NCBI GenBank assembly: GCA_951406725.2
Contig: OX597819.1
Location: 99,262,001-99,326,000 of the forward strand
Source of the DNA: Octopus vulgaris
Lineage: Eukaryota
Length of the DNA: 64,000 bases
Direction: 5' to 3'
Shown one piece after another: positions 15,763 through 41,673 of this stretch (the first letter of the stretch is position 1; each line of letters begins with the position of its first letter). The notes beneath the pieces are model-generated. The model was not told the DNA's origin, made no database searches, and was given only the letters and a program-made list of their open reading frames with translations. The position numbers were made by a program, and so were the translations under genes.

Positions 15763-16380
15763 ATATCAGAAACAAGTTTAAAATAATGGTCATTACATAT
15801 GATTCCATTATATGAGCAAATTTGGCTTACAACTGTTTCCAGTAGTCATTATAGGCACACTACTGGTAGATTCATGCAACTGGTCTATAGATAAACTGAG
15901 GCAAATTGAACGACCTAGGAAGATTAAGGCTACTTTCGTCAGAGCTATTTCTGGATATAGCAAGCAGAGTACTTTCTCCAATGCTCTGCTTGTATAGCCA
16001 GAAATGGCTCTGACGAAAGTAGCCTTAATATTCTTAGGTCATTCAATATGTCTCAATTGATCAATAAACCGATTAAGTAAAGCTATCAATAATGTACTTA
16101 TAATGACTACTGGAAACAGCTGTAAGCCAAATTTGCTCAAATAAAGGAATTATATGTGATGACCATTATTTTTAACTTGTTTCTTATATATCATTCTGTT
16201 TAAAAACTAGTTTCGCTGGAGCCCATCCATGGATTTACAACATAGAATTGTGATGAACCATAACCTGGGACCCTACCGAAGATTACTTGGTATTTTTCTC
16301 TAGTCTAACCAATATTGTTACCCTGGTGTGCCAACAGAGGGCTTATGAAATATTTTGCCCGATTTAATAAGCCCTCACTA
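15763..16380. mobile_element. Family C fold-back element (inverted arms ~15763-15970 and ~15984-16192, with a right-hand extension)
   Basis: Arms are imperfect reverse complements around the central hairpin CAAGCAGAG...CTCTGCTTG. Flanked by TA/TG microsatellite. Confidence 0.85.
16005..16129 (+). ncRNA. Type I hammerhead ribozyme with a ~96-nt stem II region, family C (mirror copy 15823-15947 on -)
   Basis: UGGCU-CUGACGA-AAGUAG...CUACUG-GAAAC-AGCU-GUA^-AGCCA. Stem I UGGCU/AGCCA, stem II AGUAG/CUACU, palindromic stem III. Confidence 0.75.
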
Positions 16381-16384
16381 TATA

Positions 16385-16760
16385 TTTATATATAAAAGTG
16401 AGGTTGTGTGCTGTCTGTCTCCTACGATTTAGATTCCTAACTACTCCCACATTTTGTGGTGCAGTTTAACCAAAACCGGACATCTTATAGTCGTGATTCA
16501 TATCAAGCCCTACGATGAGTCTACGATTTTAAAAATAATTTACCATCAATTTTTCCCATTTTTAATGCATTTTTGGCATATATAAGGGAAGTAACTCTCT
16601 AAAAATTTATTATTAAATCTCAGAACGTAAAAAGCTACAGTAACACCCCCCCTCCTTTGTGGTTAGCTATATTGAGATGGCTATTATACTTTACATCTCT
16701 AAAAATGCTTATATAGTTATTTCCCTTACAAACCCGAGCAACACCGGGCGATACTGCTAG
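16385..16760 (+). mobile_element. Non-autonomous Helitron-like element
   Basis: Starts T(T)TATATATAAAAG followed by GTCTGTCT; ends with hairpin CCCGAGCAACACCGGG ~8 nt before CTAG-T. Confidence 0.7.
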
Positions 16761-39300: not shown

Positions 39301-41460
39301 CGGTTCAATTGATTACATCGGACGTTATAATTCAAATGCCCCAACCAACAGCGCGCCAAACTCTCACGGAAAAACAAATACAGCATTTAGAAATAAATGC
39401 AGCATAATTATAATTAATTAATAAGGGTGAGAGAATTAGATACTAATTTAATAGTATATTTATTCCACACCAAGTGGCCTAGTGCTACGAGAAACCTGGA
39501 TTATTATAATATTTTATAACATATTATAATATTTTCACAAAATAAATATAAGAGAGTGTTCACTATATTGATCACTCTAGCACCAGTTAATCCAAGAGGT
39601 TTCAACCACGAAAATATATGTTTCCATGAAAGCCGGTACGACTGTTAGTTCACACGGACAGGGCAAATATAAAAAATAACAAAAATACAGATTATCTTGG
39701 GACAATTGTTTCGCTATTAATGAATTAAATGTAATATTACTTACAGTAATCCATTTGTAGCTCTTCAGCCAAGGCTATCTTGATGAAATCCACTCAATCA
39801 CACGCCAGATTTTACCATAACGATAATTACGCGTGCGGTTCAATTGATTACATCGGACGTTATAATTCAAATGCCCCAACCAACAGCGCGCCAAACTCTC
39901 ACGGAAAAACAAATACAGCATTTAGAAATAAATGCAGCATAATTATAATTAATTAATAAGGGTGAGAGAATTAGATACTAATTTAATAGTATATTTATTC
40001 CACACCAAGTGGCCTAGTGCTACGAGAAACCTGATTATTATAATATTTTATAACATATTATAATATTTTCACAAAATAAATATAAGAGAGTGTTCACTAT
40101 ATTGATCACTCTAGCACCAGTTAATCCAAGAGGTTTCAACCACGAAAAATATATGTTTCCCATGAAAGCCGGTACGACTGTTAGTTCACACGGACAGGGC
40201 AAATAAAAAATAACAAAAATACAGATTATCTTGGGACAATTGTTTCGCTATTAATGAATTAAATGTAATATTACTTACAGTAATCCATTTGTAGCTCTTC
40301 AGCCAAGGCTATCTTGATGAAATCCACTCAATCACACGCCAGATTTTACCATAACGATAATTACGCGTGCGGTTCAATTGATTACATCGGACGTTATAAT
40401 TCAAATGCCCCAACCAACAGCGCGCCAAACTCTCACGGAAAAACAAATACAGCATTTAGAAATAAATGCAGCATAATTATAATTAATTAATAAGGGTGAG
40501 AGAATTAGATACTAATTTAATAGTATATTTATTCCACACCAAGTGGCCTAGTGCTACGAGAAACCTGGATTATTATAATATTTTATAACATATTATAATA
40601 TTTTCACAAAATAAATATAAGAGAGTGTTCACTATATTGATCACTCTAGCACCAGTTAATCCAAGAGGTTTCAACCACGAAAAATATATGTTTCCCATGA
40701 AAGCCGGTACGACTGTTAGTTCACACGGACAGGGCAAATAAAAAATAACAAAAATACAGATTATCTTGGGACAATTGTTTCGCTATTAATGAATTAAATG
40801 TAATATTACTTACAGTAATCCATTTGTAGCTCTTCAGCCAAGGCTATCTTGATGAAATCCACCAATCACACGCCAGATTTTACCATAACGATAATTACGC
40901 GTGCGGTTCAATTGATTACATCGGACGTTATAATTCAAATGCCCCAACCAACAGCGCGCCAAACTCTCACGGAAAAACAAATACAGCATTTAGAAATAAA
41001 TGCAGCATAATTATAATTAATTAATAAGGGTGAGAGAATTAGATACTAATTTAATAGTATATTTATTCCACACCAAGTGGCCTAGTGCTATGAGAAACCT
41101 GGATTATTATAATATTTTATAACATATTATAATATTTTCACAAATAAATATAAGAGAGTGTTCACTATATTGATCACTCTAGCACCAGTTAATCCAAGAG
41201 GTTTCAACCACGAAAAATATATGTTTCCCATGAAAAGCCGGTACGACTGTTAGTTCACACGGACAGGGCAAATAAAAAATAACAAAAATACAGATTATCT
41301 TGGGACAATTGTTTCGCTATTAATGAATTAAATGTAATATTACTTACAGTAATCCATTTGTAGCTCTTCAGCCAAGGCTATCTTGATGAAATCCACTCAA
41401 TCACACGCCAGATTTTACCATAACGATAATCACACGCCAGATTTTACCATAACGATAATT
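36303..41460 (-). repeat. Tandem array of ~9.6 copies of a 535-bp non-coding unit, each intact unit carrying a hammerhead ribozyme (retrozyme / Penelope pseudo-LTR-like)
   Basis: Marker GTTTCCCATGAAAGCCGG recurs at ~36390, 36945, 37481, 38016, 38551, 39086, 39620, 40155, 40690, 41223. Units are nearly identical, have no ORF and are flanked by (TA)n. Confidence 0.95.
37020..37097 (-). ncRNA. Type I hammerhead ribozyme, family A (further copies 37556-37633, 38091-38168, 38626-38703, 39161-39238, 39696-39773, 40230-40307, 40765-40842, 41299-41376)
   Basis: Minus strand reads CUUGG-CUGAAGA-GCUA...(49-nt stem II)...UAGC-GAAAC-AAUU-GUC^-CCAAG. Core is complete, stem I is CUUGG/CCAAG, stem II is GCUA/UAGC plus AUGGAUUA/UAAUUCAU plus UGUAA/UUACA, stem III is palindromic and the triplet is GUC. 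Confidence 0.92.
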
Positions 41461-41673
41461 ACACTCTCTTATATTTATTTTGTGAAAATATTATAATATG
41501 TTATAAAAATATATATATATATATATATGTATATATATATATATATATATTATATATATATATGTATATATATATATATATATATATATATATATATATA
41601 TATATATATATATATATATATATATATATATATATATATATATATATATATATGTATATATATATATATATAT

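Follow-up and report, generated by a model that had tools for sequence, protein, structure and literature searches.

Head-to-head inverted copies of repeats with hammerhead motifs in a genomic window of Octopus vulgaris and their probable link to Penelope-like integration

A stretch of 64,000 nucleotides from contig OX597819.1 of Octopus vulgaris (GCA_951406725.2, positions 99,262,001 to 99,326,000), here called the window, contains short repeats with hammerhead-like motifs that occur as inverted pairs. This raises the question why the pairs point the same way and how the inverted copy is formed. The window has a GC content of 33%, resembles animal-type DNA and is rich in microsatellites and SINE-like repeats. 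Self-comparison recovered six inverted pairs, five at separate loci (L1 to L5, from left to right) and one at the end of a tandem array, each bounded by the element and all at about the coordinates of the original prediction. In 6 of 6 loci the left arm lies on the minus and the right arm on the plus strand, with the 5′ ends meeting centrally (two-sided binomial p=0.031; 5 of 5 and p=0.0625 without L2). Taken alone, this statistic is suggestive, not strong, the sample being six events from one window.

The predicted rule that all such elements share one polarity holds for the fold-back subset, but not as a universal one. Four hammerhead-like elements stand alone, with no inverted partner up to 1.5 kb away, and the fold-back is therefore common in the window but not obligatory. 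The arms of L2 are identical in 186 of 186 positions apart from one 1-nt indel, and the piece at the array end matches the family A unit in 48 of 48 positions. The arm identity is 164/166 at L3 and 94-98% at L5, and decreases to 176/206 aligned columns at L1 and 127/149 in the outer part of L4. L2, L3 and L5 are taken as the most recent of the palindromes.

The hammerhead motifs were identified with descriptor scans for the type I fold, which has the cores CUGANGA and GAAA, is closed by stem I and contains a helix III that is palindromic or nearly so. A scoring motif was found in 7 of the 12 arm segments, namely both arms of L1 and L3, the right arms of L4 and L5 and the array unit. All 7 lie on the strand that had been predicted from the ribozyme sense and none on the opposite strand. 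For six of these motifs 0 of 200 dinucleotide shuffles reached the observed score, and for the L5 right arm 2 of 200 did. The remaining five segments (both L2 arms, L4 left, L5 left and the 48-nt piece at the array end) have no scoring ribozyme and were oriented by homology. Rfam reports no hammerhead at gathering score anywhere in the window, and at E≤10 the region 15700-27500 gave 138 matches, mostly microRNA models on microsatellites or palindromes and none of them a hammerhead. The calls therefore rest on the descriptor scans, and the motifs are known here as sequence. Single-strand folding showed unusual stability for the family A motif only (z=-2.7). The other five motifs were within the shuffle range, as would be expected if they need dimers, and this was not counted as support. 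A hammerhead pattern scan of viral contigs gave 0 matches. The scan of metagenome contigs covered 120 loci among about 1000 estimated, 4 of the 120 with a stem I of at least 4 bp, and none of these 4 with a repeat or inverted copy.

The first locus, L1, consists of a left arm (15763-15969, minus strand) with a type I hammerhead motif at 15828-15942, in which 96 nt lie between the core halves and helix III reads ACAGTTGT, and of a right arm (15984-16190, plus strand) with a motif at 16010-16124, a palindromic helix III ACAGCTGT and a 5-bp stem I. The arms are separated by a spacer of about 10-14 nt. Their mismatches are concentrated in loop II, with 21/84 there versus 9/122 elsewhere (Fisher p=5.7e-4), and the best 60-column mismatch window was matched in only about 0.1% of 20,000 permutations. 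A directional AT bias between the arms was not significant (17 versus 8, p=0.11). The pattern suggests that the arms derive from two source RNAs which differ mainly in the variable loop of the putative ribozyme. It is as expected for two lineages under selection, and is not predicted by a uniform decay of identical copies.

At L3, the left arm (19472-19622, minus strand) carries a hammerhead-like motif with one core mismatch (CUGGAGA, 19525-19556) and the right arm (19760-19910, plus strand) a hammerhead-like motif at 19826-19857. The centre (19623-19759) is a (TACA)n/(TA)n/(TATG)n microsatellite, of which a part belongs to a 45-bp tandem duplication. At L4, the left arm (22244-22500, minus strand) is decayed and has no scoring motif, retaining CUGAAGA and GAAA, and the right arm (22640-22929, plus strand) has a degenerate hammerhead with a 6-bp stem I at 22668-22755, in which GAAA is changed to AAAA. 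Between the L4 arms lies a non-palindromic spacer of about 140-170 nt, and the arm differences in the outer 149 columns are evenly spread (permutation p=0.65). L1, L3 and L4 belong to three additional families that share no detectable similarity, each preserved as a shorter relic.

The second locus, L2, is a 5′-truncated relative of family B without ribozyme, with 72-74% identity to family B over about 160 nt, by which it was oriented. The left arm (18259-18445, minus strand) ends in a short 3′ end joined to (TA)n and is separated by a spacer of about 3-12 nt from the right arm (18458-18735, plus strand). The predicted left end of L2 was recovered, but the right arm continues about 90 nt beyond the predicted right end, to about 18735. 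This one-sided 3′ extension (18644-18735) reaches a long 3′ end and is followed by (TA)n.

The fifth locus, L5, is built from family B itself, whose unit is 565-575 bp long. The left arm (25560-26449, minus strand) comprises unit positions 183-565 followed by 1-502 and ends in a long 3′ end, and the right arm (26450-27418, plus strand) comprises positions 1-565 followed by 1-410 with a short 3′ end. The right arm has hammerhead motifs at 26612-26656 and 27177-27221, whereas the ribozyme of the left arm is disrupted, in the outer unit by a 10-nt insertion in helix III that is absent from both right units and in the inner unit by a start inside loop II. Read against the unit, the junction shows a 2-nt overlap. 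Each arm contains sequence that one copying pass over the other arm cannot supply, in either register. Furthermore, 8 of 10 letters of the left outer unit that are rare in other family B copies are common to both L5 arms, so that these come from one source lineage and not from two random RNAs. Short and long 3′ ends about 90 nt apart were found at both L2 (~424 and ~510) and L5 (~410 and ~502), the long end being on the right arm at L2 and on the left arm at L5.

In 4 of 4 short-read contig sets with three organism labels (1469-8489 contigs each), family B occurs as a tandem repeat with many copies, and unit-to-unit joints are listed in 3 of the 4 sets. One opposite-strand joint is listed (X3, 26538|26635), its direction not given. 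The family B contigs are mostly shorter than about 130 nt, which is too short for a polarity count. The summed depth drops 3.5-6.5-fold after ~26962, near the long 3′ end, in 4 of 4 runs, but this is not evidence, since contig depth cannot rank parts of the unit. At 26632-26635, the inner end of the L5 left arm, the opposite-strand joint and a skip joint of X3 coincide at a small hairpin in loop II of the family B hammerhead, possibly a hot spot of truncation, with three cases only.

Family A forms a tandem array on the minus strand (36305-41460) with 535-bp units and nine intact hammerhead motifs, and its leftmost unit is degraded by TA-like sequence. The array is followed by an inverted piece of 48 nt on the plus strand (41461-41508), with a 2-nt (AC) overlap at the junction, which continues into (TA)n. 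The piece stops about 28 nt past the array's own 3′ end, an array end that is itself degraded. Two inversion centres are adjoined by tandem duplications, of 45 bp at L3 (19600-19690) and of 29 bp at the array junction (41399-41464), which look as if from slippage of a reverse transcriptase near the 5′ junction. In addition, a solo family A unit (24603-25104, minus strand) with an intact hammerhead motif at 24629-24699 lies within (TA)n and has no inverted arm.

Other repeats were found in the window. A solo hammerhead-like element with a 6-bp stem I and no inverted partner lies beside (TA)n at 8722-8915 (minus strand). Another family, which has a core-like CUGAAGA motif, is present at 815-990 (plus strand) and 52765-52935 (minus strand), the two copies being about 80% alike, beside (TA)n and solo without inverted arms. 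A small palindrome at 9084-9215 has arms of about 40 bp and is succeeded by (TA)n and by a partial third copy, and its polarity is unassignable. Inverted repeats that have diverged (73-85%) and contain no scoring hammerhead are located at 52947-53117, 53268-53447 and 18926-19024. At 16380-16762 an element ending in a CTAG motif is inserted in TA, which we take to resemble a non-autonomous Helitron. Direct duplications of 569 and 88 bp (98% identical) at 11188-12473 and 13399-14004 are bounded by (AAT)n runs.

A (TA)n setting had been predicted for the fold-back elements. A microsatellite adjoins 10 of the 12 outer ends, the right end of L2 being counted after its tail, and the ends that abut other sequence are the right end of L1, where it is unique, and the left end of L3. 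The microsatellite at the right end of L3 is (ATAG)n, so that the predicted setting applies in general but not to every end. The AT-rich or microsatellite target is a trait of Penelope-type insertions, and target-site duplications are unreadable in the outer flanks, most of which are simple repeats. The mirror symmetry ends at the element boundaries, with unmirrored unique flanks at L1-L5, and L2, L5 and the array have staggered outer ends. A one-sided tail, also typical of Penelope-type insertions, has a length of about 90 nt at L2 and L5 and about 28 nt at the array; it is absent at L4 and uncertain at L1 and L3. Further traits of this type are the inverted 5′-truncated copy next to the 5′ end, which was found in 6 of 6 loci, and, within the repeated end, a predicted hammerhead motif of type I, identified by shuffle-controlled descriptor scans in 5 families.

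These traits match the published insertions of endonuclease-bearing Penelope-like elements, which show a 5′-truncated copy inverted head-to-head, partial tandem units, a tail at a single end, microsatellite targets and a hammerhead in the repeated end (PMC3846280, PMC8557442). The head-to-head arrangement with an inverted pLTR and an optional 31-bp tail was described as the most frequently observed one for Penelope (Arkhipova et al., 2013; PMC3846280). Craig et al. (2021; PMC8557442) described a 5′-truncated copy in inverted orientation, a tail on one side and targeting of (TA)n, and their supplement lists Octopus Naiad elements as preferring (TA)n. Naiads, however, lack canonical hammerheads. 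The polarity is thus an already published Penelope property and not a discovery by itself, and the tie to Penelope-like insertions that had been drawn in the original prediction is well founded. The octopus repeats differ from these insertions by the absence of an ORF, by arms that are often of equal length (L1-L4) and by the tail of about 90 nt in family B.

Type I hammerheads of metazoan Penelope-like elements resemble the motifs found here in the short helix I, the palindromic helix III and, in most families, the unpaired base before helix II, but the helix III inserts are 4-6 nt here and not minimal (PMC4209133). Hammerhead pairs on opposite strands, 100-700 bp apart, are also known from Schistosoma (Cervera and de la Pena, 2014; PMC4209133), for which the relevant section of that paper does not state a direction.

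The elements are, judged from their sequence, non-coding, retrozyme-like repeats. Tandem units of which two or more in a row carry a complete type I hammerhead motif are present in family A (nine) and family B (two), and L1-L4, taken alone, contain no such repeat. Families A and B accordingly fall under the working definition of non-LTR retrozymes as available from the preprint of Li, Clavereau and Pollet (2026; 10.64898/2026.07.22.740005). Animal non-LTR retrozymes are likewise non-coding with low-GC tandem units that carry one type I hammerhead each, and they have been proposed as non-autonomous Penelope derivatives (PMC7229834; 10.64898/2026.07.22.740005). Their units are about 170-400 nt long, whereas the octopus units, known here as DNA, have 535-575 bp and a long loop II; in four families the core halves lie 26-96 nt apart. 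The available text of these accounts does not treat fold-back ends (PMC7229834; 10.64898/2026.07.22.740005). A title-level literature search, which covered few subscription journals, found no paper on fold-back retrozymes in cephalopods and none that derives Penelope inversions from twin priming. The families appear to be previously unreported members of a known group, and they are probably parasites of Penelope-like elements.

An autonomous partner with a Penelope reverse transcriptase and GIY-YIG ORF was found in none of the 8 ORFs scanned among the 78 listed for the window, most of the others being microsatellite frames. The reverse transcriptase and endonuclease matches among the scanned ORFs belong to an APE-type LINE that is present twice. 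These copies (29091-33480 and 41698-44647, minus strand) are 99% identical, encode APE and reverse transcriptase, and have (AATC)n 3′ ends joined to (TA)n; they represent either a young LINE with (TA)n as its target or a false duplication. This LINE was rejected as the mobiliser, being of APE type with an (AATC)n 3′ end and without similarity found to the six families. The copy at 29091-33480 has an upstream CCCH-type ORF (Torus, below cut-off) and an N gap, and at the LINE 5′ end (33535-35294) there are nested AT-rich tandem repeats with periods of 16-89 bp and a 371-bp duplication. Four short motifs of the repeats are absent from the supplement text of Craig et al. (2021; PMC8557442), a text which may not contain the consensus sequences.

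The original prediction assumed one shared integration mechanism, an assumption that is supported, and named priming from both ends of a break or cDNA fold-back as candidates. The polarity cannot choose between the two, because a target-primed cDNA and an opened fold-back both leave the RNA 3′ end outside. We hold with moderate confidence that the head-to-head pairs arise by priming on both cut strands, with a Penelope-like reverse transcriptase/GIY-YIG protein acting in trans. Such a protein would be the likely mobiliser of the non-coding hammerhead repeats, and it would likely cut both target strands and prime a cDNA from each 3′ end. Each cDNA would be antisense to the RNA and extend inward from its flank, and inward-growing antisense cDNAs, as in target-primed reverse transcription, would leave the left arm minus, the right arm plus and the RNA 3′ ends outside. 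The two priming events may start at one of two preferred internal sites, so that the outer ends would be equal (L4, perhaps L1) or a single arm would carry a tail (L2, L5, the array, perhaps L3). The templates could be two RNAs or, if one multimeric or circular RNA was used, two of its units, and the cDNAs would be joined centrally, either via self-complementarity of a few bases or via a run of (TA)n.

Comparable reactions are known from related systems. In vitro, the Penelope protein of Anolis cleaves both strands and extends them from the same internal start sites of reverse transcription, the tail being the stretch between two such sites, and a dimeric state is predicted for the protein (Frangieh et al., 2024; PMC11167929). 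For the L1 retrotransposon, twin priming and dual priming have been defined (Meyer et al., 2010; PMC2837659), in which both nicked strands prime cDNA and an inverted 5′ part with the same polarity results. In twin priming, however, different parts of one RNA are copied and the arms are not mirror copies (PMC2837659), whereas here both arms start at equivalent sites. A dimeric Penelope-type enzyme that loads two RNAs or two repeat units, with the arms built independently from both cut strands and with arms of two subfamilies at locus L1, is a more tentative proposal.

The structure of L5, the paired short and long ends of L2 and L5, together with the inverted piece of the array that passes the array's own degraded end by about 28 nt, and the loop II differences at L1 lean towards two priming events, and L5 fits one multimeric RNA that was primed twice. 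Several observations count against priming on two strands. The inner ends nearly coincide at L1, L2 and L3, which is rare under independent 5′ truncation and natural for fold-back, and the arms of L2 and L3 are 99-100% identical. Furthermore, the outer differences of L4 are even, the L5 arms are of one lineage, and the tails of about 28 and about 90 nt deviate from the 30-40 nt given in the papers.

These observations bear on the alternative that a cDNA or an antisense transcript copies itself, so that the first arm is the template of the second. Self-priming of this kind would still be Penelope-driven with the same polarity, and self-priming on an antisense template is the explanation given by Arkhipova et al. 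(2013; PMC3846280), the origin of tandem and inverted structures being called still undefined by Craig et al. (2021; PMC8557442). The near-zero spacers at L1 and L2, the self-complementary microsatellite centre of L3 and the near-identical arms of L2 and L3 agree with it, and the 48-nt piece at the array end can arise with a 2-nt primer. However, plain fold-back fails at L5, where an extra template jump is required in either register, and it is disfavoured at L1 by the clustering of differences in loop II; in addition, the 48-nt piece terminates no more than about 28 nt from the 3′ end of the array itself. We consider self-priming the most serious competitor of two-strand priming, yet a rather doubtful one.

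Some families might instead move as whole palindromes, the arm differences and centres being inherited from a master copy with both arms under selection. L1 could be such an inherited diverged palindrome, since this would account for its tight centre together with the loop-concentrated divergence. Family B, however, has two unrelated centres (L2, L5) and tandem units in other runs, and family A occurs both as an array and as a solo unit, which makes this explanation improbable for the pairs.

An inverted duplication at the DNA level after insertion, by hairpin formation or replication template switch in (TA)n and without reverse transcription, would suit elements that lie within long self-complementary (TA)n fields and the microsatellite centre of L3. 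It leaves the single polarity unexplained, the mirror symmetry does not extend past the elements into the unique flanks at L1-L5, and the same two outer ends recur at L2 and L5, so that it is even harder to sustain. An assembly or read fold-back artefact, to which the N gap, the TA-degraded sequence at 36.3-36.9 kb and the homopolymer differences of the window could point, as could the absence of the L5 junction from the joints listed in the four short-read contig sets (which drop rare variants), is very improbable indeed, since the arms of L1 and L4 are only about 85% identical, the divergence of about 15% on which the original prediction had relied being strengthened as an argument by the staggered outer ends and the unmirrored flanks at L1-L5, and since family B has an opposite-strand joint in the independent run X3.

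The remaining value of these loci lies in arm-level evidence on how inverted copies form, evidence that comes from one to three loci. The question of the origin of inversions can be approached well with non-coding families like these, which are short and very abundant and in which both arms can be read. Where a genome contains many thousands of such elements, a comparison of their arm genotypes would decide how Penelope inverted copies form, against the published self-priming model. For annotation, such palindromes should not be recorded as MITEs, microRNA hairpins or assembly errors. Finally, the result supports viewing animal retrozymes as passengers of Penelope-like elements.
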